NCBI GenBank assembly: GCA_963726255.1
Contig: CAVSBL010000002.1
Location: 1,888,001 to 1,952,000, forward strand
Length of the DNA: 64,000 nt
Source: Candidatus Bathyarchaeota archaeon
GTDB lineage: Archaea > Thermoproteota > Bathyarchaeia > 40CM-2-53-6
Direction of reading: 5' to 3'
Made by a program: the position numbers and the translations under genes. A model generated the notes under the pieces. It was not told the origin of the DNA. It worked only from the letters and a program-made list of their open reading frames with translations, and ran no database searches. Position 1 is the first letter of the stretch. Each line of letters opens with the position of its first letter. Below, in pieces: positions 1,461-27,446 of the stretch.

Positions 1461-2366
1461 TCAAGCACATCTGACGTTACCAAAGATTCCCATGATCTCC
1501 TTGATCAAAATCGCTGAAGTGAAGGCAGTCGTTCCCGCTCGTGAGTCGCAACGTGGTGAGTACTCAACGATGTCAGCCGCGATTATGTCTAAATCTGCGA
1601 TGCCGTGCAATATCTCAATCAACTGTCTTGTGGTCAAACCACCTGGTTGCGGATTTCCAACTCCGGGTGCATAAGCGGGATCTAGACAGTCAAGATCGAT
1701 GGATAGGTATACAGGCCCGCCTTGCAGCCTCTCTCTTATTGCAGAGCTGACAGTATCGCATCCTTTTGTGTACACGTCGTGCGACGTGTATTGCATGAGA
1801 TTAAGTGACCTGATGCGGTCATCTTGTTCCTTCGTCGAGGCTCTTATGCCAACGAAGCAAACCAGTCCCGAACTTGAGCCCTTTTCATCCAGTATTCTCG
1901 AGACGACGGTGGCGTGGGAGTACGGGGTATTGCCATAACTCATGTATAGATCTGGATGGGCGTCGAAGTAAAGTAGTGACAGTCGATTCCTCTGAATTTC
2001 CGATGCAACCATGAAGGCTGGGTACGTAACAAAATGATCTCCACCAAGGAAAAGCAATGGACTCCTGCCATGATCGTGAAGGGTTGCCGTCGAGTAGAGA
2101 GCTTTGTGAAGACTCGAATGTTTCTTAACTCTTACATTGCCGTGGTCGCAGACCTTCCAACGCTCCGTCAAGTCATCCCCTCGTTCCGTGAAGTGATTAT
2201 ACAGTAGACTGCTCGTTGCCCGCCTAATGGCGTCCGGGCCTCCGGCAGCACCGCGCGTGAAGGAAGAAGTGGCATCCCATGGTATGCCTACGACCACGAA
2301 ATCCTTACCGTGAGAACGAGTTAGGCCAAAGAAGCTCTCGCTCCGTTTGAATTTCAAACTACGCAA
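1461..2366 (-). CDS. speB: Agmatinase (ureohydrolase/arginase family)
   Basis: Motifs GIPWD...GAAGGPDAIR, GGDH, DAHPD, SHAT, SIDLDCLDPAYAPGVG.P.PGGL, DIVE. Confidence 0.85.
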   Translation of the reverse strand: MRSLKFKRSESFFGLTRSHGKDFVVVGIPWDATSSFTRGAAGGPDAIRRATSSLLYNHFTERGDDLTERWKVCDHGNVRVKKHSSLHKALYSTATLHDHGRSPLLFLGGDHFVTYPAFMVASEIQRNRLSLLYFDAHPDLYMSYGNTPYSHATVVSRILDEKGSSSGLVCFVGIRASTKEQDDRIRSLNLMQYTSHDVYTKGCDTVSSAIRERLQGGPVYLSIDLDCLDPAYAPGVGNPQPGGLTTRQLIEILHGIADLDIIAADIVEYSPRCDSRAGTTAFTSAILIKEIMGIFGNVRCA

Positions 2367-2474: not shown

Positions 2475-3209
2475 CTACTTTTCGAGAGTGACTTCGAAAT
2501 TCTCGCCGACCTTTAGTCCATGCCAACGTCTATCAACCCCGACATTCCGCGTGTTCCTGACTCGCATAAGGTCTCGCGGGGGGTCGCTAGTCTCATCAAG
2601 TCTGAAGTCTACCACGATCTCACATGCCCCTTCCAATCTCTTGTAGGCCCAGTCGCTGAGCACTCCTTTCATTACTCCGGCGACATAGACCATCTTACGT
2701 ATTCCCGCGATCGGAAGAAACCGAGTTAGCTCCAACTCCACCCAAGCTCTTTCGTCGTTAAACCGGGCAAATAATGAATCGTCATCGATAATCATCAGAT
2801 GTTCTGGGTTTGGGGTTCGCCGCATATCTTCCCGGGACATGATGAGGCTGATGTCTGCAACTTTCAAGGAATCCCAATGGTACTTTTCCTTTGATTTCTG
2901 GCCAAGCGAGATCGTGTACGCGTCGAAGATCTGCAGTCTCTCATATTCAGCATCTACGAACGTGTTCTCAAGTTGAGATGCATCCAGCCCGAGACGCTTG
3001 AGCTGTGAGCGCACCTGGTCAGGTGGTTGGGTTCCCGCCTCATAGTGAACACTTCTGTTTTCTGTGCTCTTCAACCAACCAGCTGCGATCGTAACGGAAG
3101 CGTTGAACCATTGCGAGGCCGGATCATACTCTACCAGAATGTTAGATCCTGCAGGCACTGGCCCAGAAGTTAGATCCTCAATTATCGGAATTCGTGTCAA
3201 AGCTGCCAT
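2475..3209 (-). CDS. KaiC/RAD55-like RecA-fold protein with degenerate Walker A
   Basis: 'TRIPIIEDLTSGPVPAGSNILV' is the typical KaiC-like N-terminus, but the P-loop reads EYDPASQW. C-terminus 'VVDFRL....RDLMRVRNTR'. ATG at 3209 preferred over the ORF-track TTG at 3257. Confidence 0.7.
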   Translation of the reverse strand: MAALTRIPIIEDLTSGPVPAGSNILVEYDPASQWFNASVTIAAGWLKSTENRSVHYEAGTQPPDQVRSQLKRLGLDASQLENTFVDAEYERLQIFDAYTISLGQKSKEKYHWDSLKVADISLIMSREDMRRTPNPEHLMIIDDDSLFARFNDERAWVELELTRFLPIAGIRKMVYVAGVMKGVLSDWAYKRLEGACEIVVDFRLDETSDPPRDLMRVRNTRNVGVDRRWHGLKVGENFEVTLEK

Positions 3210-3317
3210 TGAGGAAGTGTGAGATGTACATTGTAGGTTTTTCTGTGTGTGGGTCAACTGGTGCGAATGTCCGATTTTGCGCTCCTCTTTTTGTGCGTAT
3301 CAGTGTTGCGGTAGAAC

Positions 3318-3711: not shown

Positions 3712-3730
3712 TGAGCTCTTTCAGAGCTCA
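3712..3730 (-). terminator. Hairpin at stop of APC permease followed by T-rich tract on minus strand
   Basis: TGAGCTCT-TTC-AGAGCTCA (8-bp stem) includes the stop codon. The minus strand continues ...TCTATTTCTTGAGTTTTCGTTT. Confidence 0.45.
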
Positions 3731-5347
3731 TTCTGGAGGTACTTCTTTGTGAAGCAGGTCTAGGTCGATTCCGGCGCGCTTGCGATATGACCGGGCAAGG
3801 TAGTAGATCACCACGCCCGCTGCATATATTCCAACTACGAATCCCGTTGAGTATGGTCCTACGGGTCCTGAGAATGCTGGCAGTGCGAAGGACGAGTAGA
3901 GAATGAGGCTGAACAGGATTACACTGATCAATCCAGAGATGCTGATCAGGGGGATTCCAGCAATCTTCTTCTTGACGAGTTCTGGTGCGGCGTCAAACAT
4001 GTCCTTTCTTACGTAGGGGAATAGTAGGGCAGAGACACCCGTTATCCAGAAGCATACCGAGAAAATGACCGTGTAGTTCACTACGTAAGTGAAGAATGGT
4101 GTGAACACGTACAATGTCATCAGTACCCAAGCGACGAATGCGATGGTTACGCTGGCCACCCAAGGTTGTCCCGATTTGCTTACGGCCGCGAGCTTCTCAG
4201 GTATCACGCGGTCGAAGGACCATGCGAAGACGTTTCTGACACAGATGGTCATCATCACAATTAGTAGCAAGAACGTCCAAAGGAAGAAGCTAGCTCCTAT
4301 CAGAGCGTTAGCCAGTGGATTTCCTGCCAGTATGCCCGCGAAGAAGTTCACTACGGGGGGTACAGGGATTGGGTTAGCTGAGGGGTTATTGAGATTGAGA
4401 TAAGCTATTGCGTCGTTGAACTTCGCGCCTACAACGTTGTAGTATAGAGCGAAAGTGACCGCGTAGAACACGAAGCCAAAGAGCAATGAGAACAGAATTG
4501 CCTTGTTCTGGTTCTTCTGCGGTTCCTTTACCTCTCCACCGATGTACACAGAGTACGTGAACCCTATGTACACCCAGTATCCGATTGGGATTGAGAGAAG
4601 TGTAGCAATCAGCGAGGGGGCGGGTACGGAATACCCTTGGGTTGTGGCTGTTGAGATTATCGAATTGTAGGCATCCGGGAGATTCGTTGTCTTGAGCATG
4701 AAGGCATTGAAAATCTGGATGAACTGCGCATTATTGTAGGATAAGAATACGATTAATGTTGCGAAGGAGCCTACCGTAGCGATGACCATCCCGTAGGTCA
4801 ATATTCTTCGAACCAATCGGGTTGGCATTAGTAATATGACCGTAACCACGGCCATCACTATCGTGCCGACGACCCAAGTATAGGTTGGCGTCGCGATAAG
4901 ACTGCCGAATGTGATCATGCCTGCATCTGCAGTTTGATATCCTAATGTCAGTATTGCTGAAGCGAGTGCATAGTTCGTGATCCATGCCGTGTAGATTCCG
5001 ATTCCTAGGAATTGTGACCACGTGAAGCCCCAGTTGGACATGAACCCAATCGCTGGATGAAGTATCCTGCCGTTATAGACGTAGTCTCCGCCAGAGCGGG
5101 GCATAGCTCCGGCAAGCAAACCGTAGCACAGACCGTTGAAGACCGTCAGGATTGTTCCGATGATGAGCATACCGAAAATGTTTGCTCCTGGGAACAGGCC
5201 ACCCACGAACAGCGGCGTGACCATTATCACGAGGCCCAGAGCGAAGCCGAGGGTGTTGAAAGCAAAAGCATCGAAGAGGCCGAATTCTCTTGTTAGACCC
5301 GAAGCGCGTCGTACGAACATTTCAGGTCTTTTGTGACTTTCTGACAA
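3728..5347 (-). CDS. APC-family amino acid/polyamine permease (paralog 1)
   Basis: About 12-14 hydrophobic segments. Motifs FVRRASGLTREFG, MPRSGGDYVY, GGEVKEP, FAWSFDR. Confidence 0.9.
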   Translation of the reverse strand: MSESHKRPEMFVRRASGLTREFGLFDAFAFNTLGFALGLVIMVTPLFVGGLFPGANIFGMLIIGTILTVFNGLCYGLLAGAMPRSGGDYVYNGRILHPAIGFMSNWGFTWSQFLGIGIYTAWITNYALASAILTLGYQTADAGMITFGSLIATPTYTWVVGTIVMAVVTVILLMPTRLVRRILTYGMVIATVGSFATLIVFLSYNNAQFIQIFNAFMLKTTNLPDAYNSIISTATTQGYSVPAPSLIATLLSIPIGYWVYIGFTYSVYIGGEVKEPQKNQNKAILFSLLFGFVFYAVTFALYYNVVGAKFNDAIAYLNLNNPSANPIPVPPVVNFFAGILAGNPLANALIGASFFLWTFLLLIVMMTICVRNVFAWSFDRVIPEKLAAVSKSGQPWVASVTIAFVAWVLMTLYVFTPFFTYVVNYTVIFSVCFWITGVSALLFPYVRKDMFDAAPELVKKKIAGIPLISISGLISVILFSLILYSSFALPAFSGPVGPYSTGFVVGIYAAGVVIYYLARSYRKRAGIDLDLLHKEVPPE

Positions 5348-5485
5348 TTTTCCTCGAGGCTACTGAACAGTGTTCGGATATATGCCTTGTCATATGTTGG
5401 CGAATATAGATTTGCAGTAACAGTAACTTCACACAATTTATAAGTTCCCCTACAGCCGCACGTAGCAAGCGGCGCTGTTACGAAC

Positions 5486-6430
5486 ATGAAGATTTTCTTC
5501 ACATCAGACGTTCACGGATCCGAGAAGACGTTCATGAAGTTCTTGAACTCGGGGAAGTTCTACAAAGCAGACGTACAAATCCTGGGAGGAGACATCACAG
5601 GTAAAGTTGTGATACCCATCTTCGCGGAAGCAAATGGGAAGTATCAAGTTCACTTTCAGGGTGGAGATTACACACTCACCCAAGAGGATGAAGTCTTGAG
5701 CATGGAGAAGCAGATTCGCGACGCCGGATTCTACAGCTTTAGAGCGAGACCTGAGGAAGTTGAGAAAATCAATACCTCCCCAGCAGAGAAGAATGCACTC
5801 TTCGAAAAACTCATGGTCGAACGACTCACGAGATGGATGCAAATCGCGGATGAAAGACTTAGTGGAACGAACATTCAGTGCTATGTCATGGCTGGCAATG
5901 ATGACGCGCACATAGTGGACTCAGTTCTGAATGGTGCGAAAGCAGTTATCAACCCGGAGGGGAAAGTGGTGGAGGTCACTGATCATTTGGAGATGGTCAG
6001 CTCAGGATATAGTAACATGACGCCGTGGAAGTGCCCTAGAGACGTATCTGAAGAGGAACTCGCGAAAAGGATTGAGGACATGGCGTCCAAGGTTAAAGAT
6101 TTCTCGAAATGTATCTTTAACCTCCACTGCCCTCCCTATGGCACAAACATTGACCAAGCGCCTTTGCTTGATGAGAAGCTTTCACCTAAGATGGGACCGT
6201 CCGGTATGCAGATGGAGCCTGTGGGGAGTAAAGCGGTGAAGAACGCGATAGAGAAGTATCAACCACTGTTGGGTTTGCACGGACACATACATGAATCTCG
6301 CGGCGTTTGCAAGATCAATAAGACACTCTGCATAAATCCTGGTAGTGAGTATGGAGAGGGTATTCTGCGTGGCGCTTTGATTAGCATAAAGAACGATCGA
6401 GTTGAAAGTTACAGTTTCACCTCTGGTTAA
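5486..6430 (+). CDS. Calcineurin-like metallophosphoesterase (paralog 1)
   Basis: Motifs SDVHG, GGDITG, GNDD, NLHCPP, GHIHE, NPGS. Confidence 0.9.
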   Translation: MKIFFTSDVHGSEKTFMKFLNSGKFYKADVQILGGDITGKVVIPIFAEANGKYQVHFQGGDYTLTQEDEVLSMEKQIRDAGFYSFRARPEEVEKINTSPAEKNALFEKLMVERLTRWMQIADERLSGTNIQCYVMAGNDDAHIVDSVLNGAKAVINPEGKVVEVTDHLEMVSSGYSNMTPWKCPRDVSEEELAKRIEDMASKVKDFSKCIFNLHCPPYGTNIDQAPLLDEKLSPKMGPSGMQMEPVGSKAVKNAIEKYQPLLGLHGHIHESRGVCKINKTLCINPGSEYGEGILRGALISIKNDRVESYSFTSG

Positions 6431-6433
6431 CCA

Positions 6434-7210
6434 TTGAAGGTTATCTGCTTGTACATTGCTTCCCCTTTCGAGCAGCAGCTCTTTGATGAAGGTAAGAGAA
6501 TTCTCGATACGGCACGCGACAGAGGCATTGTACTCCGACTTCTTGGAGCGTTAGCCATCAGAACGCACTGTCCCGAGTTTTCGTACATACATGAGAAAGC
6601 AGGTAGAACGCTTTCAGACCTCGACATGGCCGCTTACCAAAAGCAGGGCCCAGAGATATCGCGCTTCTTCAAGGATGTAGGTTATAGGCACTCGGCATTG
6701 GCTGCAATTCCCGGCTTGAAAAGGGCCGTTTTTCTTGGCGACGGGGAATTGCACGTCGACATATTCTATGAAGGTTTAGAGATGTGCCACGATATTTCCT
6801 TCAAGGATAGATTGGAGGTGGATTACCCAACCATCCCTTTGGCGGAACTCCTCCTTGAAAAGATGCAGATCGTTCAGATTAACGAAAAGGATCTCATCGA
6901 CACGATAATGCTCCTAAGAGAGCATCAAATTAGTGACAACGACAAGGAGGCCGTGAATGGACCTAGGATAGCCAGCCTATGTGCAGCCGAGTGGGGGCTG
7001 TGGAGAACTATCACTATGAACCTGGGCAAAGTCACTAATTACGCCAAGTCTTTCGCCGCTATCCAAGACGAAGACAAGAGGGACGTCACAGAGAAAATCG
7101 ACCAACTGCTGAAAATGATCGAGGACGAACCGAAGACGTTCAAGTGGAAGATGAGAGCGAAAGTAGGCGATAGCAGGGTCTGGTACAAGACAGTCGAGGA
7201 ACGAGCATAA
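6434..7210 (+). CDS. Putative Pol-beta/AbiEii-like nucleotidyltransferase (paralog 1)
   Basis: LLGALA..., RTLSDLD, HVDIF, LLEKMQ, EKDLID correspond to the hG[GS/A]xA, RxxxDxD, K and KDxxD motifs. Starts 3 nt after the phosphoesterase stop. Confidence 0.6.
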   Translation: MKVICLYIASPFEQQLFDEGKRILDTARDRGIVLRLLGALAIRTHCPEFSYIHEKAGRTLSDLDMAAYQKQGPEISRFFKDVGYRHSALAAIPGLKRAVFLGDGELHVDIFYEGLEMCHDISFKDRLEVDYPTIPLAELLLEKMQIVQINEKDLIDTIMLLREHQISDNDKEAVNGPRIASLCAAEWGLWRTITMNLGKVTNYAKSFAAIQDEDKRDVTEKIDQLLKMIEDEPKTFKWKMRAKVGDSRVWYKTVEERA

Positions 7211-7266
7211 GCTTCGTCGTCCAAATCATTGTAATCTGTCTTCCAGCATTGAAAATGCGCGCAGTG

Positions 7267-8127
7267 CTATCTTGGGCCTGACCCTTTCTCCAGAAGCATC
7301 TTGTAGAGCTCCGGTCGCCGATTATGGAAGTAATTGTAGGTTTCCCTCTCTCGATGTGCCTGTTCTAAATCAACCTCGGCGAGGAACATTTTCTCTCCTT
7401 GATCGGCGCTGGCTATGATCTCTCCCTGTGTCCCAATGATGCGGCTCATACCGTAGAAGTGGCTCTTCAGGTCCGGGTCGTCGCCGACTCTGTTGCATAC
7501 AGCAACCACAAGCCTATTCTCCAACGCGCGAGCGCGGAAACTAAGTTCGAACACTCTCTCTGGAAGCCCAGGGACACCTTCTGGCCAGTCAGCGACAAGA
7601 TGGAAGATTACCTCGGCACCCTTGAGAGCAAGTATCCTGGCTGTTTCGGGGAACTCAAGGTCGTAGCATATCAGGAGTCCCACCGTTCCAAAGTCGGTTT
7701 TGTAAACTGGTAATTCTTCGCCTCGCGTGAAGATGCTCTCGGTCGGAGGATACGTGTGCGACTTTCTGTAGTTGCCTAAGATCCCGCCTAGCCTATCAAT
7801 CAACACCGCAGAATCGAATAGTGTGCCGCCGGTCGATCTCTCGGCGAGCCCAACAATAACGTACACCTTGTTCTCTGCAGCTTTCTTGGCAACCGCCTCA
7901 ATTGTCGGTCCTGGAACCGATTCTGCTACATTCCTGAACCGCTCACCGAGCGCGTACCCTGCAGAGAGGATGAGTTCGGGAAACAGGACCACATCGGCGC
8001 GCTCAGCAGCTGCCTTGTCAATCCAGTCACAAACCTTGGAGAGTGTACTCTTAACATTCCCATAGACAACGTCCATTTGCACGCATGCTATCTTCACTTT
8101 ACGATTTGTAGTCTTCAATTTTGTCAC
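7267..8127 (-). CDS. Carbon-nitrogen hydrolase (nitrilase superfamily amidase)
   Basis: E-K-C triad in FPE, YRKSH, ICYDLEFPE; also NRVG and YGMSRII. Confidence 0.9.
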   Translation of the reverse strand: MTKLKTTNRKVKIACVQMDVVYGNVKSTLSKVCDWIDKAAAERADVVLFPELILSAGYALGERFRNVAESVPGPTIEAVAKKAAENKVYVIVGLAERSTGGTLFDSAVLIDRLGGILGNYRKSHTYPPTESIFTRGEELPVYKTDFGTVGLLICYDLEFPETARILALKGAEVIFHLVADWPEGVPGLPERVFELSFRARALENRLVVAVCNRVGDDPDLKSHFYGMSRIIGTQGEIIASADQGEKMFLAEVDLEQAHRERETYNYFHNRRPELYKMLLEKGSGPR

Positions 8128-8128
8128 T

Positions 8129-9445
8129 CTACCGGTCAGTTCCGCACCATTCTGTAACCGCGACGCAGAGAATTTTCGCCGTCTTCACTATTGAATCGAT
8201 TGAAACGAACTCGTCGACGACGTGAGCTTGTTCTGTAGGTCCGGGTCCTAAGGCGATTGAGGGAATCTGCAGCAGGTTCATGAGGTGGGCCCCGTCGTCC
8301 CATGAGTCTAAGGCGGAGATTCGCGCTTTTACGGAAACTGCGTCAGCAGCGGACATAACATTACGGACTAGTGGATGATCACGTTCCACTTCCATGGGGG
8401 GAAGGTCCATTATCCACTCGATTCGGGCAGGGTGTTCTGCCAGCCAACTGTCCGCTTGACAAGAACGGGCAAGATGTTCTTCGATTTCTCTCTTGACTTT
8501 GGTTCCATAGCCTTTCTCATCGCGATCGGCGGGAAGGTATTGAATGTCCATCTCCATCTCGCACTTGTCAGGTATCGTCGCCCAGAAGTCGCCTGACTTG
8601 ATTATTGTTGGCATTATTCTGGGTGCGGATAACAACTCGTGTTTCTTCGCGGACCTTTTAGTCCAATCCGCCTCTAAGGTTCGAAATGCGTCGAGAACTA
8701 TGGATGCCTTCTCGATCGCGTTGACTGCTCCCCCCTCGCTCCAGTGTGGGTGGTTCAGTTCCGCATGACCAGCCCGCCCATCAACAATCGCCCTCGCCCA
8801 GAGCAGACCTCTGGTCGCAATCCAGAGGTTCAAATTGCTGGGCTCTGGGATTATCGCAGCGTCAGCCTTGTAGCCTCGATCAATGCAGGCGACTGTACCC
8901 ATTCCATTGATTTCCTCGTCAAGGACGGTTTCTATGATCAAGTCGCCCTTCAGTTTCAACTTGGAACTGCTAATCACTTTCGCGGTGGCGATTATTGCTG
9001 CTGCTCCAGCTTTCATGTCGCAAGAACCGCGGCCAAAGATCTTACCATCCTTGACTTCTCCTCCCCATGGATCATGTTTCCATTTTGACGCGTGGTCGGC
9101 TGGTACGACGTCGATGTGTGCGTTGAGGATTAGTGAACGGCCGTCCCCAGAGCCTTTGAGTGTGGCTGCGAGCATGGGCCTCTTGTTGAAATTTTGTCCC
9201 TTGATGTAGAACGGGTGGTGTGATAACTTGTTGATGTCGGGTTCCCAAAGGTCTACTTTGAATCCGAGCTCTTTGAGTTCTTCAGCGACGTATTCTTGGC
9301 ATTGTTTATCATCGAATGCTGCCTGCCCAGGGTTGGGTGAGGTTGTGTTGAACTTTACTAGGTCGCTGGTGAGCTTAACGATTTGGTCGGTCCTTTTCTC
9401 AACGGCGTTTAGTAGCGTCTTTGTTTCATCTTGCAAGTGAAACAT
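8129..9445 (-). CDS. M20 ArgE/DapE-family deacylase
   Basis: NAHIDVV, GRGSCDMKAG, DEE, IIPEP, GPG...AHVVDE. Confidence 0.9.
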   Translation of the reverse strand: MFHLQDETKTLLNAVEKRTDQIVKLTSDLVKFNTTSPNPGQAAFDDKQCQEYVAEELKELGFKVDLWEPDINKLSHHPFYIKGQNFNKRPMLAATLKGSGDGRSLILNAHIDVVPADHASKWKHDPWGGEVKDGKIFGRGSCDMKAGAAAIIATAKVISSSKLKLKGDLIIETVLDEEINGMGTVACIDRGYKADAAIIPEPSNLNLWIATRGLLWARAIVDGRAGHAELNHPHWSEGGAVNAIEKASIVLDAFRTLEADWTKRSAKKHELLSAPRIMPTIIKSGDFWATIPDKCEMEMDIQYLPADRDEKGYGTKVKREIEEHLARSCQADSWLAEHPARIEWIMDLPPMEVERDHPLVRNVMSAADAVSVKARISALDSWDDGAHLMNLLQIPSIALGPGPTEQAHVVDEFVSIDSIVKTAKILCVAVTEWCGTDR

Positions 9446-9453
9446 TCAACCGT

Positions 9454-10800
9454 CTAAGCTATGGCCTTGAGGGCTTGCTCTGCAGCGGTAACGGCTTTCT
9501 GAACGTCTTCCGTTGTGTGCTCTGTACATACGAAAAGGTGCTCGTACTGTTGTGGGTGGAAGTAGATCCCTCTTTTGAGGAGCTCCTTGTGAAATCGTAG
9601 ATATTTCTCGGAGTCAGTGCTGAAGAAGTCTCGATAGTTTCGAATCTTCTTCATCTTTGTGAAGTATAGTTGGCAGCCGCCAGCTCCTACGCCTTGCACA
9701 ATTCCATCTGTTCGCGTCTTCTCCACCGCGCCCTGCAAGCCGTCCTGGAGCATCCTGCCCACCCTATGCATGTGTTTGTAGGCTGCACCGTCGTTCTTGG
9801 TAAGTTCAGTTAAAGCGGTGTATGCCGCGGCGACGCAGAGCGGATTTGCATTGAAGGTTCCGGCATGCATTATCTTCCCGGGTACGACTTGTTCCATGAT
9901 CTCTTTCACGCCCGTTATTGCTGAAATTGGAAACCCTGCGCCCAAAGCCTTCGCGAATGTTGCAAGGCCGGGTTCAAGACCGAAGTATTCTTGGGCTCCG
10001 CCTGGGGCCAATCTGAAGCCGCTGATGACTTCATCGAGGATGAAGACAACATCGTATTTTTCGCAAAGTTCCTGCAGTCCCTTCAGGTAACCTTTCTCTG
10101 GAAGGACGGTTCCAATGTTCATCAGGATAGGTTCGGTTATTATTGCAGCGATCTCATGTGCCCTTCTCTTCAGTGTCTTTTCGACCACTGAGAGGTCGTT
10201 CCATGGCAGAAGGATGACGGTGCGAGCAGTCTCTTCGGGTATACCCCACGTCGCAGCGATCTTGAAGGGTGCAATTGAGGATCCGAGTGAAGGGGTCCCT
10301 AGACCCCCCAGCAATACATAATCATGAGCTCCGTGGTAACAACCTTCGAATTTGATGATCTTGTCTTTTCCGGTGTAGCCTCGTGCAATCCTGATCGCAT
10401 GCATGGTCGCCTCTGCGCCAGAGTTCGAGAACCTAACCATATCTGCGTTTGGGACAATTTCGCAGACCTTCTCGGCCAGTTTGACTTCCGTCTCGTTGAG
10501 TACCGCGAAAGCTGTACCCTTTTCCAATTGTGCACGAACAGCTTCCATCAATTTGGGATGGCAGTGGCCGAGGATACATGGTCCCATAGATAGGATGAAA
10601 TCGATGTATTGGTTTCCGTCTGCGTCCCAAATCTTTGACCCTTTCCCCCTCTCGAAGGTTAGTGGATAGGGATCGAAGACAGGGTAACATTGACCGTGTG
10701 AGCTGGCCCCGCCGGGCATTACCTTGAGCGCCCTTTGGTAGAGGTTCCATGACTTGCGCGTTGTCAGGCCAGGAGTGTATTCAACATAGGAGTTAGGCAT
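9454..10800 (-). CDS. Class III PLP aminotransferase, glutamate-1-semialdehyde aminomutase-like
   Basis: DADGNQYIDF, NSGAEA, KFEGCYHG, DEVISGFR, AKALGAGFP (PLP Lys), GTFNANP. Catabolic operon context argues against assigning hemL. Confidence 0.85.
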   Translation of the reverse strand: MPNSYVEYTPGLTTRKSWNLYQRALKVMPGGASSHGQCYPVFDPYPLTFERGKGSKIWDADGNQYIDFILSMGPCILGHCHPKLMEAVRAQLEKGTAFAVLNETEVKLAEKVCEIVPNADMVRFSNSGAEATMHAIRIARGYTGKDKIIKFEGCYHGAHDYVLLGGLGTPSLGSSIAPFKIAATWGIPEETARTVILLPWNDLSVVEKTLKRRAHEIAAIITEPILMNIGTVLPEKGYLKGLQELCEKYDVVFILDEVISGFRLAPGGAQEYFGLEPGLATFAKALGAGFPISAITGVKEIMEQVVPGKIMHAGTFNANPLCVAAAYTALTELTKNDGAAYKHMHRVGRMLQDGLQGAVEKTRTDGIVQGVGAGGCQLYFTKMKKIRNYRDFFSTDSEKYLRFHKELLKRGIYFHPQQYEHLFVCTEHTTEDVQKAVTAAEQALKAIA

Positions 10801-11034
10801 CGATCATTCCTCTTCTCAAGATTAGTGAGTGTGCCCATTCACACTATGGATATTTATTACGTTCGAGCAACTGCCCGAGGCCAGACTTTTGGCGTACAGA
10901 GTACCTATTCGAGAGTAGGCCTCACTGACCACTCGTCACTTTGTCCGTGGATAGAATCAAGGGTCATAATCCGACAAGAAGTTAAACTATCACGCGGAAA
11001 TTCTGGATCGAGTGACTAAGGAGCGCTCGTTTTA

Positions 11035-12006
11035 GTGAATACCACACTCACGGCGGTTGAGGGGTTAAGGGTCGGACATGCCCAAGACAAATCTACGCCG
11101 ACCGGTTGCACCGTGATTCTATTCGAGCCCGAAGCTGACGTCGCGTGCGAAGCACGCGGTGGATGGCCGGGAACCTACGATACGCATTCAATAGACGTGA
11201 CCAAGACCTTCGTCAAGAAACACGCCGTATTCCTTACGGGGGGTGACGTATTTGGATTTGACACGGCGATCGGGATAAGGCGGTATTTGATTGAGCGCGG
11301 TTTAGCTTCTGCCACGGGAGTTGGCAAGCTCCCTGGCATCGTGGGAGCAAACATCTACGACCTACCCATCGCTACAGTCGACAAAGTCCGATACCCCGAT
11401 TTAGGGTACCTAGCATGCATGAATGCTTCAAGGGAACCAGTTGGAGAGGGCAATATTGGTGCGGGAGTAGGCGGGACAGTGGGAAAACTCAAAGGCATCG
11501 AATTTGCCTGCAAAGGCGGATGCGGCACAACCGCAATGGCTCTGCGTAACGAAATTGTTGTGGCTGCAATAGTCGTCACAAATGCGTATGGGAACGTATA
11601 CGACATTGAAACAGGGAAGACCATAGCCGGCACCAGAAAAACCGACCGAGGTTTCATCGAATTCGACGAAGCAATCGCTGATTACCTGAATGACCATGCT
11701 CCACACCATACTACGATTGGTCTCGTTGCAACCAATATTGACTTGTCTCACGAGCAATTGATCAAGGTCGCACAGATGGCTCATGATGGGCTGGCAATGT
11801 CGATCAGGCCCGTGCACATGTCAACCGACGGTGATACTATGTTCGCTGCCTCCACGGCTAAAGTGAGGGGATTACGTGATCTAGACCGAATTGTTGACAT
11901 TGTAGGGTATGCTGGAGCCCAATGCGTCGCTAAATCGGTCGTCAGAAGCGTAAAGGCAGCACAAACATTGGCCAATGTCCCTGGCTGGAGCGACACACCG
12001 AAATAG
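11035..12006 (+). CDS. Peptidase family S58 (DmpA/P1-like aminopeptidase/amidase)
   Basis: LTAVEGLRVGHA, TGCTVI, RGGWPGT, GNIGAGVG, HTTIG (autoprocessing region), DGDTMFA. Confidence 0.85.
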   Translation: MNTTLTAVEGLRVGHAQDKSTPTGCTVILFEPEADVACEARGGWPGTYDTHSIDVTKTFVKKHAVFLTGGDVFGFDTAIGIRRYLIERGLASATGVGKLPGIVGANIYDLPIATVDKVRYPDLGYLACMNASREPVGEGNIGAGVGGTVGKLKGIEFACKGGCGTTAMALRNEIVVAAIVVTNAYGNVYDIETGKTIAGTRKTDRGFIEFDEAIADYLNDHAPHHTTIGLVATNIDLSHEQLIKVAQMAHDGLAMSIRPVHMSTDGDTMFAASTAKVRGLRDLDRIVDIVGYAGAQCVAKSVVRSVKAAQTLANVPGWSDTPK

Positions 12007-12220
12007 AAACTTCAACATATCTCGCAATCTGTAACCAGCGATCATCGAGCACACCCCCAGAGTGACCAGCTCACCCAAGAGCTTATTCCTGCTCCAGTCG
12101 CTCGCAGATTCCTTCTTGTTGTATGCGCCAAGTCGATCTGAACCGTCCGCGGAGTTACTTAGAACAGCCGATTTTGACTGCCCCGTAAAGAAAGTAAGGG
12201 TCTTGTTCTGAATAGAGCCC

Positions 12221-12493
12221 ATGAGCAGACGTAAGGATGATGCGTTTTACCTTTACTTCATAGTCAGATCAATATTGATGGGTTTGCTGGGGGCGCTGAT
12301 ATTCTCAGTTATCATATGGCTCCTCAACACTTCCAAATTACTCTACGTCCTCTCTATCTCCGCCGGAAGCTTCTTCATCGTAATGTTCCTCACTCGAGTA
12401 TTCGATAATCAGATACGGAGTTTAGTTAACAAAATCCTTGAGAAATTAGATAAGTGGCCCCGAGCGAAGGATTTCCTCTTGAGGCATTTCTAA
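12221..12493 (+). CDS. Small two-TM membrane protein
   Basis: Two hydrophobic helices followed by an amphipathic basic tail; ATG start. Confidence 0.6.
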   Translation: MSRRKDDAFYLYFIVRSILMGLLGALIFSVIIWLLNTSKLLYVLSISAGSFFIVMFLTRVFDNQIRSLVNKILEKLDKWPRAKDFLLRHF

Positions 12494-12603
12494 CAAGTCT
12501 CATTGTTTAGAGGCGTTTCTTGTAATCGCCTCGAAACGTAAGAAAAAAGAAAGGAAGCGGGGAGGTTCAGCCGTCGTAGTTTTGGTTTGCGCTCGGGATG
12601 AGG

Positions 12604-14208
12604 TTATACTGGTGGGATTTCGTGGAATGCGAGTTCAATGTCCAGTCCGTGTTTCTTGTGGTAGTAGACGCTTGCATAGTAGACTATGATGCATCCGACG
12701 ACGATTGCAAGAGCGATTCCTGCTCCAGTCAGTGTTGGAACGACAATCAGTGGGTTGATCAATGCTAAGTAGCCTATGTAGAAGAATGATATGGTTGTCA
12801 ACAGCCCTAGTATGCTAATGATGGGCACGCTGCCTACTTTCTTCCTCATCCAGCCAGGAGCCGAATCTAGCAGATCTTTCTTTGTGAATGGGAATATTGT
12901 TGTGGCAATCCCTGGAACGACGAAACAGAACGCCCAAAGGAATGTGCCTATGGTTTCAGCAGTAGGCCATGATGTGAACCAGTATAGGGCAAAGATGAGT
13001 ATTGACATCAACGTTATGGTAATTATGGAGACGTGCGGCGTTCTGAATCGCTTGCTCACATCGGCCATCTTTGTGGGGATGATTCGGTCAAATGACCATG
13101 CGAAGAAGTACCTGCTTGGGATCCAGAAGTAAACGAATGGGGCGGTAAGGGAACCCGCTAGCATTGTGAATAGGACCAAGAAGACTAGAAACTGGTTCGG
13201 GTAGGCGATTAGGGAAACCATCATGGGATAGGTCGGTGCGTAGGGCATTACACCAGAGTAGGCGGAGGGGGCGTTGTCCCATAGGTAGCCCACCGAGTAC
13301 ATCCAGTTCTCGCCTAGGTTGTTCAACGTCAATGCCGCGGTGACACTCCATATCACTATGCCGAGGATTAACGAAAGTAGCAATGCAATTGGGATGGCGC
13401 GTTTGACGTTTTTCACTTCACCTGCAACTACGTTGGCGAAGTTTCCTCCGAGGAGGAACAGAGCGGCGAAGGGAGCGCTAGCTATAGAGGCGGCCAGGGT
13501 GATGGTTGGGGGTGACCATCCAGATTGGGTTGCCAGTTTTGTCAATCCTCCGTAGGTTGAGAACTGGCCTAGGACAGTGTCCCATTTGGCTGCAAAGGCT
13601 GTTGGGTTCGTTGAACCTACGAAGCTCCACATCACGACGATTCCTATGACGGCTAGGGCCCATGCTACGTAGAGGAAGCCTCTCACAGCTTTGGCTCCGA
13701 CGATGGCGAGGGTTGCGAAGCACACAGTAATTAGAACTGAAAGTCCGAACCCTCCCACCGGACTACTGAGAAATGTGCCTAGGCTGATCAATCCCTGCGA
13801 ATTGTAGAGGAAGCCCCAGATTGTCAACGCTGTTGAAATGCCGGATGCGTAGGCGGCTGTGCCGCCGACGTATGCCGTGGCGAAGACTGAGAACATGTAG
13901 AGGAAGGACCAAGCGAAGCCTATGGCCGGATGCATAATTCTTGCAACCCAGACGTAGTCGTTGCCGGACCTGGGCATTATGACGCCCATAGCCCAGTAGA
14001 TCACCATCAACAGGACGAATGGGATGCCGGTTATGACGAGGGCCAATGGAAGGTTCGCGCCAGGGTTGAAGCCGTAATACCATGGGAATTGGAGGATTGT
14101 GTAGGTGAGGGCGAAAACGGCGGCTGATGCAATTAACAAAGTGTCGAGTGTTCCGAATTCTCTGACTAAACCACTTGACGTTCTTGCGAAGAAGGTCTTT
14201 TGAGCCAT
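12604..14208 (-). CDS. APC-family amino acid/polyamine permease (paralog 2)
   Basis: FARTSSGLVREFG, MPRSGNDYVW, AGEVKN, FAWSFDR. C-terminus FHEIPPV parallels HKEVPPE of paralog 1. Confidence 0.9.
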   Translation of the reverse strand: MAQKTFFARTSSGLVREFGTLDTLLIASAAVFALTYTILQFPWYYGFNPGANLPLALVITGIPFVLLMVIYWAMGVIMPRSGNDYVWVARIMHPAIGFAWSFLYMFSVFATAYVGGTAAYASGISTALTIWGFLYNSQGLISLGTFLSSPVGGFGLSVLITVCFATLAIVGAKAVRGFLYVAWALAVIGIVVMWSFVGSTNPTAFAAKWDTVLGQFSTYGGLTKLATQSGWSPPTITLAASIASAPFAALFLLGGNFANVVAGEVKNVKRAIPIALLLSLILGIVIWSVTAALTLNNLGENWMYSVGYLWDNAPSAYSGVMPYAPTYPMMVSLIAYPNQFLVFLVLFTMLAGSLTAPFVYFWIPSRYFFAWSFDRIIPTKMADVSKRFRTPHVSIITITLMSILIFALYWFTSWPTAETIGTFLWAFCFVVPGIATTIFPFTKKDLLDSAPGWMRKKVGSVPIISILGLLTTISFFYIGYLALINPLIVVPTLTGAGIALAIVVGCIIVYYASVYYHKKHGLDIELAFHEIPPV

Positions 14209-14361
14209 TACATGATCACATCTTGTTTGCAGATTTTCAGTCCATCACTTGAACTAGTCAGGATATAAGATATTCCAAACAAGAACCATCCTTGGAAAAA
14301 GGGTAACACTCGGTAGCAAAGGATAATTGGTGCACGGGCAAACCGCTGGCGGCGCCTATTC

Positions 14362-15141
14362 TTGGAAAATCGAAGCGGCCTCTCAGACTTCTTCAAAGAT
14401 GCTTTGATGATAATTGAGGCCGCGAAGCAGAAACAAATCGAGTTGAGGTTGATGGGTGCAACGGCCATTTACTACCGTTGCCCAAACTCAAGAAACTTGA
14501 CTGGGGCAATGAGTAGGGCACTTACCGATTTAGATTTCATGACGCTGTCCAAGTATGTGAGGCATATTCCTGATTTGTTTGCAAGTCTCGGCTTCGAAGG
14601 GAATGAGCGAGTAAATGCCCTATACGGGCTGAGGCGCCAAATCTACGCTGACCCGAAAAATGCAAGGCACATCGATGTGTTCGTTGACAAACTTACTTTC
14701 TGCCACCAACTCGACCTAACCCGCAGATTGGAGTTGGACCCGGTCACACTATCGTTGGCTGATCTTCTCCTGGAGAAGATGCAAATCGTGAAGATCGGAG
14801 AGAAAGACGTGAAAGACACAATCATACTCCTTCGGGAACACGAACTAGGTGACAGTGACAATGGGAGAATAAACATGGACTACGTAGCAAAACTGTTGGC
14901 GGACGATTGGGGATTCTATTACACCGTGACAACCAACCTAAAGAAAACAAAGGACTATGCGAACAGCCTCACAGTCCTTAGCCAAGAGGACCGCAAGCTG
15001 GTGGGCAGCAAGATAGATATGCTCCTGGATAAAATCGAGCGAGAAGGCAAGTCATTCAAGTGGAAGATGCGCGCAAAGGCTGGCACCAAGGTACAATGGT
15101 ATAGCGACGCCGAGGATGTTGAAAACAGAGCCGCGACCTGA
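14362..15141 (+). CDS. Putative Pol-beta/AbiEii-like nucleotidyltransferase (paralog 2)
   Basis: LMGATA, RALTDLD, HIDVF, LLEKMQIV, EKDVKD, FKWKMRAK shared with 6434-7210. Confidence 0.6.
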   Translation: MENRSGLSDFFKDALMIIEAAKQKQIELRLMGATAIYYRCPNSRNLTGAMSRALTDLDFMTLSKYVRHIPDLFASLGFEGNERVNALYGLRRQIYADPKNARHIDVFVDKLTFCHQLDLTRRLELDPVTLSLADLLLEKMQIVKIGEKDVKDTIILLREHELGDSDNGRINMDYVAKLLADDWGFYYTVTTNLKKTKDYANSLTVLSQEDRKLVGSKIDMLLDKIEREGKSFKWKMRAKAGTKVQWYSDAEDVENRAAT

Positions 15142-15160
15142 TTAATCAGAATGAAGTTCG

Positions 15161-16111
15161 ATGCCAACTAAAATATTCTTCGCGACCGACCTGCATGGGT
15201 CGGAGAAGTGCTTTCTGAAGTTCGTTAACGCAGCCAAGTTCTACAAAGCAAACACCCTGATAATGGGTGGCGATATTACCGGGAAGATGATTATACCGAT
15301 CATTAAGGAGCCGAACGGTAAGTACCACGCAACATTCGTGGGAAACAAACGTACGGCGAAGAATGAAGAGGAGCTCCAGGATCTGCAAAGGGCGATACGG
15401 TTTGCTGGTTACTACCCTTATTTGACGAATCCTCAGCAGATGGAGCAGCTTCAGGCTGACGATTCGAGAGTGCAAGCGATTTTCAAAGAACTCATGTTGG
15501 ACACCGTGAAGAGATGGGTTCAACTCGCGGAAGCGCGTTTGAAGGAGTCTAACATAAGGGTGTACATTACCGGCGGGAACGATGACATAGCAGAAATCGA
15601 AAGCATCATCGGAAGTTCAAGCTACGTGATCGACCCTGAGGACAAGGTTGTAGAACTCGACGGGAAGTTTGAGATGATTAGTACAGGCTGGAGTAACCCG
15701 ACACCTTGGAAGACCGCACGCGAGTGCCCTGAAGATCAACTTTGGGCCAAGATAGAAAAGATGGCTGCCCAGGTCCAGAACATGAAGAACTGCATCTTCA
15801 ACTTGCATGTGCCGCCCATAGACTCCGGCCTCGACACATGCCCCAAACTAGATGAGAACCTCAAACCCGTTCTCGCGGGCGGAGAGATCGTGATGACCTC
15901 AGGTGGAAGCACTTCGGTTCGAAAGGCTATTGAGGTATACCAGCCATTGCTGGGTTTACACGGCCACATCCATGAATCCAAAGGATTCTTGAAAGTTGGT
16001 AGAACTCTCTGCCTCAACCCTGGAAGTGAATATGGCGAAGGGATTTTACGAGGTGCGCTAGTCGAATTGGATGATGGCTCAGTCAAGAACTTCCTGCTCA
16101 CACAAGGTTGA
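15161..16111 (+). CDS. Calcineurin-like metallophosphoesterase (paralog 2)
   Basis: TDLHG, GGDITGK, GNDD, NLHVPP, YQPLLGLHGHIHES, NPGSEYGEGILRGAL. Confidence 0.9.
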   Translation: MPTKIFFATDLHGSEKCFLKFVNAAKFYKANTLIMGGDITGKMIIPIIKEPNGKYHATFVGNKRTAKNEEELQDLQRAIRFAGYYPYLTNPQQMEQLQADDSRVQAIFKELMLDTVKRWVQLAEARLKESNIRVYITGGNDDIAEIESIIGSSSYVIDPEDKVVELDGKFEMISTGWSNPTPWKTARECPEDQLWAKIEKMAAQVQNMKNCIFNLHVPPIDSGLDTCPKLDENLKPVLAGGEIVMTSGGSTSVRKAIEVYQPLLGLHGHIHESKGFLKVGRTLCLNPGSEYGEGILRGALVELDDGSVKNFLLTQG

Positions 16112-16117
16112 CGAACT

Positions 16118-17011
16118 ATGAGCCCATTAGCGCGAGATTTCATCGGTTACGGCAAGAAAGTACCGAAGGTTCGATGGCCCAAAGGAGCAAGGCTCGCGTT
16201 AACCTTCGCCATCAATTATGAGGCTGGAGGCGAACACTCCGTCGCCTTCGGGGATCAGGGAGCCGAAACTTTCGGCGAGTTTCCCGCATACGGAACCCCG
16301 CCCAAGCGCGACCTAGCGATCGAATCCATCTTCGAATACGAGACCAGGGTCGCGATATGGAGAATCCTGCGGACGTTCGACAAATACAACACGAAAACTA
16401 CATTCTTTGCTACCGCGAAAACATTGGAAACCAACCCGGAGGCAGCTAGGGACATAGTTCAGAGAGGGCATGAGATATGCAGCCACGGTTACCGTTGGAT
16501 CGAACACTTTACACTAACCCGCGAAGAAGAGCGCGACGCCATTCGCAAGGCTGTAGCCTCAATTGAGAGCGTGACAGGACAGAGGCCTGTTGGCTGGTAT
16601 TGTAGGGAGCCCAGCGAGAACACGATTGAGCTTCTTGTCGAAGAGGGAGGATTTCTGTACGATTCAGACGTCTACAACGACGACTTCCCTTATTACGCAA
16701 ATGTCAACGGAGAACATTTCCTTCTGATCCCATACACGCCGGACGTGAACGACTTTCACTACTTCTCCAACAGATTCAGCAATTCCGAGGAGTTCTACCA
16801 ATATCTCAAAGATTCCTTCGACCAAATGTACGATGAGGGGCGTCAGAACCCTAAGATGATGAACGTAGGCTTGCACGTAAGAATATCAGGCAGAGCCGGG
16901 AGGACGGTTGCTGTCGGCAGATTTCTCAAATACGTTAACGCGAAGCCAAAGGTTTGGATAGCCCGTAGGGTTGACATCGCGAAATGGTGGCTTGAAAACC
17001 ACAAACCCTAG
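16118..17011 (+). CDS. puuE: PuuE-type allantoinase / polysaccharide deacetylase family
   Basis: RDFIGYG...WP, NYEAGGE, ESIFEY, HEICSHGYRW, GWY, YDSD.YNDD.PY, KMM.VGLH.RI.GR match the PuuE pattern. Confidence 0.7.
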   Translation: MSPLARDFIGYGKKVPKVRWPKGARLALTFAINYEAGGEHSVAFGDQGAETFGEFPAYGTPPKRDLAIESIFEYETRVAIWRILRTFDKYNTKTTFFATAKTLETNPEAARDIVQRGHEICSHGYRWIEHFTLTREEERDAIRKAVASIESVTGQRPVGWYCREPSENTIELLVEEGGFLYDSDVYNDDFPYYANVNGEHFLLIPYTPDVNDFHYFSNRFSNSEEFYQYLKDSFDQMYDEGRQNPKMMNVGLHVRISGRAGRTVAVGRFLKYVNAKPKVWIARRVDIAKWWLENHKP

Positions 17012-24810: not shown

Positions 24811-24881
24811 TCCAGAACGTGGAATTTGAACTAAACAGTTAAGAATTCGCAAAGTTCGGAAGCCACATCGCAATTGAGACG

Positions 24882-26858: not shown

Positions 26859-26873
26859 ATGAGGTAATCTGAA

Positions 26874-27446
26874 ATGAGTTCGAAACCGTCGCCACTTGCG
26901 AACCCAGCTCCCCTCGGCTTGATGGGTTTTGGAATGACCACAGTCCTACTCAACCTTCACAACATGGGCCTCTTCGGAATCAACAGCATAGTTGTTGCAA
27001 TGGGGATTTTCTACGGCGGTCTTGCGCAAATCATCGCTGGGGCTATGGAGTTCCGGAAGGGAAACACATTCGGAACCTTAGCCTTCACCTCGTATGGGCT
27101 TTTCTGGCTAACGCTTGTCTTCATAATCATGTCCGGTGTTGAGCGTCCAATGTTTGCGCCTGACAGCGCAGCGTGGGCGGCCTATCTGTTCATATGGGGG
27201 CTCTTCACCGCAATCATGTTCTTCGGAACCCTCAAAACCAATAGAGGCCTTCAAACGGTGTTTCTGTCACTTGCAATACTGTTCTTCCTACTCGCCGCAG
27301 CGCAATTACTCCCTCAGCTTGGACTAGTCGCTGGAATAGAAGGAGTCTTCTGCGGTTTCAGCGCATTCTACCTCTCGCTCGCAGAGGTGCTAAACGAAAC
27401 CTACCATCGTCCCGTGCTACCTGTCGGCCCTATCAAAAACGACTAG
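26874..27446 (+). CDS. satP: Acetate uptake channel, GPR1/FUN34/SatP family
   Basis: Signature [30 protein letters not shown]; directly downstream of acs. Confidence 0.9.

Follow-up and report, generated by a model that had tools for sequence, protein, structure and literature searches.

A recurrent module joining an APC-type permease, a metallophosphoesterase and a predicted Pol-beta-fold nucleotidyltransferase in a bathyarchaeal genome

Gene layout of the two modules

We analysed a stretch of 64,000 nucleotides (the window) from Candidatus Bathyarchaeota archaeon, assembly GCA_963726255.1, contig CAVSBL010000002.1, positions 1,888,001 to 1,952,000 of the forward strand. The source genome comprises 2.42 Mb in 5 contigs and is 98.5% complete with 9.3% contamination. 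The window carries two copies of a module of three genes, which encode a permease of the APC superfamily, a calcineurin-like metallophosphoesterase (MPE) and a protein predicted to be a nucleotidyltransferase (NT) of the Pol-beta fold:

3728-5347, minus strand: permease copy 1 (permease 1), APC subfamily, 539 amino acids (aa) from a TTG start; AA_permease_2, 85.5 bits
5486-6430, plus strand: MPE copy 1 (MPE1), metallophosphoesterase, 314 aa, from sequence, alignment, AlphaFold2 (AF2) model and structure matches
6434-7210, plus strand: NT copy 1 (NT1), predicted Pol-beta-fold nucleotidyltransferase, 258 aa, starting 3 nt past the MPE1 stop codon
12604-14208, minus strand: permease copy 2 (permease 2), APC subfamily, 534 aa; AA_permease_2, 40 bits
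14362-15141, plus strand: NT copy 2 (NT2), 259 aa from a TTG start, all catalytic residues kept
15161-16111, plus strand: MPE copy 2 (MPE2), 316 aa, all metal ligands kept

An initial annotation, made from the sequence alone, had placed the trio at 3728-7210 and 12604-16111, with the permease divergent from the enzyme pair in both copies and the order of the pair reversed between them, and the list of open reading frames (ORFs) agrees on each of these points. It had also run the region on to 17011, a position that belongs to a neighbouring PuuE-like deacetylase gene and does not mark the limit of the module. The gaps within the enzyme pairs measure 3 nt in copy 1 and 19 nt in copy 2. The start of NT2 is uncertain, with a further ATG at residue 16 (about 14407), and permease 1 may in truth begin at the ATG of residue 10, leaving the motif F-x-R-R-A-S-G-L at the extreme N-terminus. 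A probably spurious 86-aa ORF at 14208-14468 (minus strand) abuts the start codon of permease 2 and runs into the 5' end of NT2 on the other strand.

The paralogues are 41% identical over 243 aa (NT), 48% over 313 aa (MPE) and 30% over 547 aa (permease). Because they have diverged this far and the order of the enzyme pair is swapped, the duplication is old.

Permease subfamily

Both permeases are members of the APC superfamily, matching AA_permease_2 in Pfam with the scores listed above (cut-off 27). Permease 1 has the N-terminal motif FVRRASGL and the C-terminal tail GIDLDLLHKEVPPE, and permease 2 has FARTSSGL and the tail GLDIELAFHEIPPV. Among 47 aligned permeases the segment before transmembrane segment 1 (TM1) reads F-x-R-[KR]-A-[ST]-G-L-x-[RK]. 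F11, R13 and G17 each occur in 46 of the 47 sequences, and position 16 is Ser or Thr in 46/46 rows that have a residue there. The C-terminal end reads G-[IVL]-[DN]-x4-[FYH]-x-E-[ILV]-P-P-E, with P537 in 47/47. Both termini are basic, and from the usual APC topology we take them to be cytoplasmic.

All 12 subfamily permeases of the genome carry both terminal motifs; its one ordinary APC permease has neither, and no NT or MPE gene lies near it. The permeases diverge far more than the two enzymes, with a mean column identity of 34% (22-33% identity to copy 1) against 54% for NT and 50% for MPE. By their aligned sequences, therefore, they are a distinct, marked APC subfamily. A shared regulatory site was sought as 7-mers in the 200 nt upstream of the 12 permease genes, and dropped when none occurred in more than 4 of the 12.

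Two small genes lie close to the window permeases. A 90-aa ORF with two hydrophobic helices (12221-12493, plus strand) is convergent with permease 2; it recurs only in the nearest relative (locus L009, 94% identity), lies beside no other permease of the genome and weakly matches the CARF_TM model of PADLOC (E 0.0034). On this distribution it was rejected as a general part of the modules in this genome. A 260-aa ORF 3' of permease 1 (2475-3257, minus strand) was considered as a fourth part of the module and rejected because its paralogues lie mostly away from the modules: it has no Pfam or NCBIfam match, and of about 9 further sites in the genome (23-51% identity) only one is near a module.

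Metallophosphoesterase

MPE1 and MPE2 gave only weak matches to Metallophos in Pfam. The metal ligands of MPE1 are D8, H10, D36, N138, H214, H267 and H269. In an alignment of 33 members with a mean column identity of 50%, D8, H10, G137, N138, D139, D140, H214, G266, H267 and H269 are invariant, and G35 and D36 nearly so (D36 in at least 90%). As the ligands are invariant or nearly so in all 33 sequences, the metal ligand set is complete, and it is kept in all intact paralogues of the genome. Motif III is GNDD and not GNH[DE], the usual His being replaced by Asp. At a further site of the genome (contig C2, 918027-918970; locus L090, 6028-6971) MPE is split into ORFs of 113 and 201 aa with 2 TGA stops, probably a pseudogene or an assembly error.

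The AF2 model (pLDDT 95) matched 66 chains at Z >= 8, among them aq_1956 (Z 23.8), TT1561 (23.0), Mre11 (19.9), MPPED2 (19.6), Rv0805 (17.5) and GpdQ (16.9); there was no PPP protein phosphatase among the 50 structure matches listed. Searched against PDB sequences, MPE had aq_1956 as its sole match at E <= 0.001 (E 0.0002). The fold and the five motifs with their seven metal ligands make MPE a member of the calcineurin-like metallophosphoesterase superfamily, and on motifs and model it reads as a probable phosphodiesterase-type enzyme. Its best matches, aq_1956 (2yvt) and TT1561 (1uf3), are metallophosphoesterases from structural genomics that align over the whole core. However, they share only 16-17% identity with the window MPE and, at 228-260 aa, are about 55-85 residues shorter. 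In the model the extra residues would be inserted after motif II and before motif III, roughly at residues 40-125.

Nucleotidyltransferase

Neither NT1 nor NT2 had a match in Pfam (E <= 0.01), NCBIfam or PADLOC, and searches of PDB sequences returned a chance match to PcfF alone (E 1.4 with the single sequence, 0.34 with the family profile). Relatives are nevertheless abundant. A word-indexed search gave 4183 at E <= 0.001 among 5325 candidates, and all that carried a name were called 'hypothetical protein'. The profile, run in full against 1.84 billion cluster representatives (50% identity clusters), reached 2814 clusters at E <= 0.001, 1965 at <= 1e-10 and 901 at <= 1e-30.

An alignment of 47 members has 38 invariant columns and a mean column identity of 54%. 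The residues G38, A41, R58, D62, D64, D109, C118, H119, E142, K143, K152, D153 and D156 are invariant, as are W187, G188, K234, W238, R241, W250 and Y251 of an extra, conserved C-terminal helical lobe. All 12 paralogues of the genome keep D62, D64, D109, K143, [KR]152, [DE]153 and D156 and, so far as residues can tell, look catalytically competent. In a quick tree, 10 of these 12 genes fall in one archaeal clade (SH-aLRT 97), and the two window copies sit in different clades. One family member of 396 aa (P0142) has an N-terminal winged-helix (MarR_2-like) domain and may be a regulator fusion or a read-through.

The AF2 model of NT (pLDDT 92, pTM 0.90) was compared with known structures. Foldseek, proposed in the initial annotation as a check of the fold, gave as its matches of lowest E-value MenT1, ANT(2'')-Ia, JHP933, LnuA and CCA-adding enzymes, all of them nucleotidyltransferases. 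VIA-align gave the following scores:

MenT1: Z 12.7 (root-mean-square deviation 3.3, 169 aligned)
ANT(2'')-Ia: Z 12.3
5uvd: Z 10.9
LnuA: Z 10.3
JHP933 homologue: Z 10.0
MenT3: Z 9.6
MenT4: Z 9.4
TM1012: Z 8.6

Synthases of the cGAS/CD-NTase-like kind reached only Z 4.2-4.3 by the same method. On this model the protein is a nucleotidyltransferase of the Pol-beta fold with the full catalytic acidic set.

In the initial annotation the protein had been likened to AbiEii/DUF1814-type nucleotidyltransferases on the strength of the motifs G-A-x-A, R-x-x-x-D-L-D, LLEK and KDxxD. All four are present in both proteins. The Pol-beta fold and the AbiEii-like neighbourhood hold, because the top structure matches are nucleotidyltransferases and include MenT toxins; membership of the Pfam family AbiEii does not hold. 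A Pfam scan of the 47 relatives gave weak matches, all to nucleotidyltransferase families: PF14907 NTP_transf_5 in 37 (best E 9.2e-6), MdcG in 4, NTP_transf_8 in 4 and AbiEii in 3. On structural similarity, G-A-x-A, R-x-x-[ST]-D-L-D, L-L-E-K and K-D-x-x-D may correspond to motifs I-IV of DUF1814. DUF1814-type toxins do have four conserved motifs, according to PMC7450476. Like MenT and AbiEii, NT shows a bi-lobed Pol-beta fold, and its G-x-x-A, R-x-x-[ST]-D-h-D, E-K and K-D-x-x-D motifs appear to sit in the same order. Unlike them, the window NTs lack a match to PF08843 (3 of the 47 relatives match weakly, best E 0.0068), have no antitoxin gene among the neighbours scanned and are linked to a permease and a phosphodiesterase in catabolic operons; NT is also mostly acidic.

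These likenesses raise the question of whether the module works in toxin-antitoxin or abortive-infection fashion like AbiE/MenAT, in which case NT would be a tRNA-modifying toxin and MPE its antidote. MenT1, MenT3 and MenT4 are among the closest structures, and what look like the four DUF1814-type motifs can be picked out by eye. However, an AbiEi/MenA-type antitoxin domain was found neither among 17 ORFs of the window nor among 149 ORFs around the other modules, NT had no PADLOC match, and the modules sit in catabolic operons where NT co-occurs with the permease subfamily. NT and MPE are, moreover, mostly acidic (pI 5.3-8.1, with 11 of 14 NT ORFs below 7); for MenT3, an electropositive surface leading to the active site is described in PMC7450476. 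We consider a toxin-antitoxin role extremely improbable.

The second likeness is to ANT(2'')-Ia and LnuA, which share the same minimal nucleotidyltransferase core with NT and transfer a nucleoside monophosphate (NMP) to a hydroxyl. They differ in having only 12-18% identity to NT and about 160-175 aa, NT having the extra C-terminal helical lobe, and NT has no antibiotic-resistance context. Among sequence models the nearest is PF14907 (NTP_transf_5, 'uncharacterised nucleotidyltransferase'), which also matched 19% of one ESM Atlas cluster. All of these matches are weak, however, the window NTs have none, and one relative, P0225, reaches 19.7 bits where the cut-off is 31.2. PF14907 is mentioned in an unrelated, phosphonate context in PMC8942020.

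In 47/47 aligned members position 61, directly before D62, is Thr or Ser. Active-site auto-phosphorylation has a precedent at T39 of MenT1 and S78 of MenT3, as reported in PMC11375011. NT might likewise phosphorylate itself on the Ser/Thr beside its DxD and so be switched off, and MPE would dephosphorylate it and thereby control an NT with some other target; the occurrence of NT-MPE fusions (see below) would suit this. Against it, in 4 of the 12 genome paralogues position 61 is A, N, H or V although the catalytic residues are kept, and Pol-beta nucleotidyltransferases in general often have Ser or Thr ahead of the first Asp. MPE, for its part, falls among diesterases and nucleases, its motif III is GNDD where GNH[DE] would be usual, and it is tied more closely to the permease than to NT. 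We therefore regard regulation of NT by MPE as very unlikely.

Recurrence and co-occurrence of the trio

The NT profile finds 14 places in the genome, of which 12 were taken as distinct genes. The places on contigs C1 and C5 were treated as assembly duplicates since their scores equal that of C2:2131215-2131979 and their neighbour genes are the same. The whole NT-permease-MPE module occurs three times with identical scores (C1, C5 and C2:2128-2132 kb), which points to redundant contigs. Both MPE and the permease lie within 9 kb of 9 of the 12 NT genes, in several gene orders.

Related loci were collected by a pattern scan with one genome per species, which gave at least 517 confirmed loci; the best 80 are used throughout, and they were searched with profile hidden Markov models built from the genome's own paralogues. 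MPE was found in 59 of the 80 loci, the permease in 50, and both in 50. In all 9 loci with MPE and no permease, MPE lies at the extreme edge of the fetched stretch. With loci assigned to phyla from their record titles, the complete trio was distributed as follows:

Archaea: 10 of 12 loci
Actinomycetota: 6 of 6 loci
Caldisericota: 3 of 3 loci
Methylomirabilota: 1 of 1 locus
Chloroflexota: 30 of 57 loci
Thermodesulfobacteriota: 0 of 1 locus, where the contig starts inside MPE

Phyletic profiles were drawn from one evenly drawn sample of 201 genomes (94 genera) of the phylum to which the window belongs, the same for each profile. NT was present in 28 genomes (E <= 1e-20), MPE in 27 (E <= 1e-40) and the permease subfamily in 27 (E <= 1e-60). 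MPE and the permease share the identical 27 genomes, and NT occurs in those 27 and in one more, G045, whose NT has an in-frame TAG stop. The majority of the 28 NT-positive genomes yielded just one NT match; two relatives of the same order have 4 and 5. Several carriers of the unit in the phylum are assembled as a single contig.

The trio is thus almost certainly a real functional module. The view in the initial annotation that it represents a conserved unit and not a recent tandem duplication is borne out by its ninefold recurrence in the genome, its presence in 50 of the 80 loci and the placement of the two NT copies in separate clades. The survey of gene neighbourhoods likewise confirmed the expected linkage, MPE and the permease recurring beside NT in archaea and in bacteria.

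One solitary NT gene has ammonium-transporter sequences nearby. At locus L098 (contig C2, 893000-910000), partial ammonium-transporter ORFs, neither of them adjacent to NT, lie at 10020-11033 (minus strand) and 16268-16639 (plus strand), on either side of DNA-methylase and DpnII-like restriction genes; they may derive from an amt gene that was disrupted or rearranged.

Partnership within the module

Within the 80 loci, a permease lies no more than 400 nt from MPE in 49 of 53 cases (same strand in 43), compared with 20 of 62 for MPE and NT and 10 of 57 for the permease and NT. In a test of co-divergence on 8 modules of the genome (the module with the split MPE was left out), MPE and permease distances co-varied with a Mantel r of 0.53 (permutation p 0.024). 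In the phyletic sample, with at most 7 permease candidates scored per genome, the copies of NT, MPE and the permease numbered 1, 3 and 7 in G030 and in G163, 1, 2 and 6 in G059, and 1, 4 and 5 in G110. Because a single NT accompanies several MPEs and still more permeases, one NT appears to serve many permeases, and this fits a shared target better than it fits the differing transported solutes.

Gene fusions were of two kinds. NT-MPE fusions of about 580 aa occur in four clusters with 11 member sequences, with NT first and a linker of about 20 residues. In P0132 (860 aa) MPE is fused to the N-terminus of the permease, with a clean junction 20 residues before F-A-R-K-A-T-G-L, and P0131 is a second MPE-permease fusion, truncated in its sequence. 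Two further candidates, P0133 and P0134, were not counted because they have long stretches rich in Arg and Ala, such as frameshifts in high-GC DNA typically produce.

Prediction of a complex of the permease with MPE gave a score of 0.39 (runs of 0.40, 0.39 and 0.37), while the best of 3 controls reached 0.01. The runs agreed in at least 81% of contacts, with a partner pLDDT of at least 84. Among 80 solved complexes, 58 reach the pass mark used, as do 2 of 110 mismatched pairs; passing scores of 0.60 or less include only 7 of the 80 solved complexes, yet both of these mismatches.

Taken together, adjacency, co-divergence, copy numbers, fusions and, weakly, the complex prediction make MPE the close partner of the permease. 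NT is probably a looser partner, acting in trans. This sharpens the writer and eraser hypothesis of the initial annotation by placing MPE, and not NT, beside the permease.

Genomic context and alternative roles

The genes between and around the two window copies encode nitrogen-compound hydrolases and transaminases, as well as an aldehyde dehydrogenase (Pfam). They include:

1461-2366, minus strand: agmatinase-family ureohydrolase near permease 1 (Pfam Arginase; TIGR01230 175.1 bits, cut-off 174.3), context only
7267-8127, minus strand: CN-hydrolase between the modules (Pfam/NCBIfam)
8129-9445, minus strand: M20 deacylase between the modules (Pfam/NCBIfam)
9454-10800, minus strand: class-III aminotransferase between the modules (Pfam/NCBIfam)
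11035-12006, plus strand: S58/DmpA peptidase between the modules (Pfam/NCBIfam)
16118-17011, plus strand: PuuE-like (allantoinase-type) gene of the polysaccharide-deacetylase family (Pfam Polysacc_deac_1), 6 nt 3' of MPE2

The last of these scores 347.7 bits against the NCBIfam model TIGR03212 (allantoinase PuuE), under the cut-off of 424.6. It is probably an operon neighbour and cargo enzyme that stands outside the three-part module.

In Pfam scans the catabolic neighbours vary from module to module. Some modules have creatininase, carbamoyltransferase and luciferase-like oxygenases nearby, and others have xanthine-dehydrogenase subunits with adenine deaminase, TldD/PmbA, or peptidases with an Opp transporter. 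Chloroflexota modules are accompanied by a dimethylglycine-dehydrogenase-like gene (50/80 loci) and a DeoR regulator (37/80). A choline/ethanolamine-kinase-like gene lies beside the module in 32/80 loci, mostly of Chloroflexota, and the gene of a four-CBS-domain protein lies directly 3' of NT in 45/80 loci, also of Chloroflexota. The ORFs scanned around the modules included none with a PII domain.

This context bears on whether NT and MPE process the imported material itself. NT could nucleotidylate the imported solute or a common intermediate, and permease-bound MPE could cleave the adduct, for instance leaving a phosphorylated product, so that uptake would be pulled forward or the first catabolic step performed. 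Small-molecule O-nucleotidyltransferases are near NT in structure (ANT(2'')-Ia and LnuA, at the Z-scores given above), the P0132 fusion and the adjacency of MPE and permease resemble a transport metabolon, NT-MPE fusions would suit two consecutive enzymes, and choline/ethanolamine-kinase-like genes stand beside the module. However, a single NT may accompany up to 7 subfamily permeases in one genome, conservation of NT and MPE is strong in archaea and bacteria alike while the permeases have only 22-33% identity to copy 1, and the catabolic neighbours range from creatininase and carbamoyltransferase through xanthine dehydrogenase and adenine deaminase, TldD/PmbA and peptidases to the dimethylglycine-dehydrogenase-like protein. 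Because these genes differ so widely, one shared small-molecule acceptor is hard to name, and we find metabolic trapping or processing rather unlikely.

The four-CBS gene suggests a different role, in which NT would make a diffusible nucleotide signal, the permease or a receptor such as the four-CBS protein would sense it, and permease-bound MPE would degrade it locally. Adenosyl compounds are common ligands of CBS domains. A genome with one NT and several MPE-permease pairs would have one synthase with many local hydrolases, and the kin of MPE include the cyclic-nucleotide phosphodiesterase Rv0805, as well as MPPED2. On the other side, the NT fold is of the MenT/ANT type, far from the cGAS/CD-NTase-like synthases in Z-score, and the 12 NT paralogues of the genome would cross-talk if their product diffused freely. 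There is also no CBS gene among the ORFs scanned in the window and ten other regions of the genome, and an NT-MPE fusion would be a single protein that both produces and removes the signal. A local nucleotide signal seems unlikely.

Proposed mechanism

The enzymes are constant, the permeases and their cargo vary, and one NT can serve many permeases; the enzymes therefore most likely act on a feature common to the subfamily and not on the solute. The sole common subfamily-specific features visible are the two terminal motifs, one of which has an invariant hydroxyl and lies 20 residues from MPE in the fusion.

We tentatively propose that the permease carries a reversible nucleotidylyl mark at its N-terminus, or on another part shared by the subfamily, that NT writes in trans and permease-bound MPE erases; this is a fair possibility that falls somewhat short of probable. 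NT would move the NMP from a nucleoside triphosphate (NTP) onto a hydroxyl common to every subfamily permease. The likeliest acceptor would be the invariant Ser/Thr in the cytoplasmic N-terminal F-x-R-[KR]-A-[ST]-G-L, just before TM1. MPE, docked on the N-terminus of the permease or fused to it, would hydrolyse the phosphodiester and so reset the permease. The two enzymes would in this way switch the uptake of nitrogen-rich organic solutes on and off, and the permeases would have diversified to serve different catabolic operons. The more specific form of the proposal, that a MenT-like NT marks precisely this Ser/Thr across the APC subfamily and a permease-tethered phosphodiesterase erases the mark, one writer thus serving many importers, is more doubtful. 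We infer the activities of NT and MPE, their targets, the direction of control and the signal.

Several observations weigh against a mark on the permease. NT occurs without MPE or permease in 21 of the 80 loci and at 3 of the 12 sites of the genome, and certain complete genomes of the phylum have it at a great distance from every MPE; with solitary and distant NT genes of this kind, NT may have another target. Its distances within the genome follow neither those of MPE (r -0.04) nor those of the permease (r -0.08). The nearest characterised NT structures target tRNA (MenT) or small molecules (ANT, LnuA), not proteins, and a writer and an eraser in one NT-MPE polypeptide would run a futile cycle unless regulated. 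The choice of acceptor residue is a guess based only on conservation, and the invariant N-terminal Ser/Thr could be purely structural. On the side of the permease-MPE pair, the fusions P0131 and P0132 are each single sequences, and the predicted complex lies in the weak zone of the scores. As to the phyletic profiles, the genomes of the sample are related, the three E-value thresholds were chosen by us, and permease scoring covered at most 7 candidates per genome.

Other genes of the window

Two genes for AMP-forming acyl/acetyl-CoA synthetases are followed by a gene of the GPR1/FUN34/YaaH family (acetate-channel type) at 23167-27446 (plus strand). At 32878-35805 (minus strand) lies the gene of a predicted surface protein of 975 aa, with a Vgb-lyase-like propeller region, long Ser/Thr-rich repeats and hydrophobic C-terminal helices. 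A complex-I/Mrp-like row at 49664-56834 (plus strand) comprises the 30 kDa and 49 kDa subunits, a NuoH-like subunit, chain 6 and two antiporter-like subunits. A scan of the whole window returned no Rfam families and no tRNA genes.

Relation to known systems and significance

In GlnD-GlnK(PII)-AmtB and in GlnE-glutamine synthetase, a nucleotidyltransferase of the Pol-beta type reversibly marks a protein that controls nitrogen uptake or assimilation. The logic is similar to that of the mark proposed here, but the parts are unrelated: the module has no PII, its transporter is of the APC and not the Amt type, and the proposed eraser is a metallophosphoesterase and not an HD domain or a second nucleotidyltransferase domain. 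A mark on the permease itself is, moreover, a proposal only. PnuC-NadR offers another comparison, in that the function of a permease depends on a cytoplasmic nucleotide-handling enzyme. Its folds differ, and its enzyme acts on the transported solute, which copy number and conservation make less likely here.

We know of no dedicated enzymatic partners or covalent regulation of prokaryotic APC-type secondary transporters. A literature search on a unit of NT, MPE and APC permease, on PF14907, on TT1561/aq_1956 and on AMPylation of APC transporters found no paper on the unit, in keeping with the remark in the initial annotation that no characterised system has this composition. We regard the unit as new in composition. 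New here are also the exact phyletic co-occurrence, the core pair of MPE and permease with an often single-copy NT, the two kinds of fusion, the terminal motifs specific to the subfamily and the 12-fold expansion of NT in this genome.

Because a permease subfamily and two enzymes are coupled almost perfectly, a new mode of transport control or a transport-coupled chemistry is likely. Organisms of soil, sediment and the subsurface from at least six phyla carry the NT family, and the genome with 12 NT genes is an extreme case, offering natural sets of paralogues for the comparison of specificity. As the module sits in choline/betaine, guanidino, purine and peptide operons, it bears on the scavenging of organic nitrogen by uncultured archaea and Chloroflexota. 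It would give the NT family related to MenT/AbiEii and the phosphoesterases of the aq_1956/TT1561 kind their first physiological role and, if the proposed mark is real, would represent a previously unknown post-translational control of secondary transporters common to archaea and bacteria.

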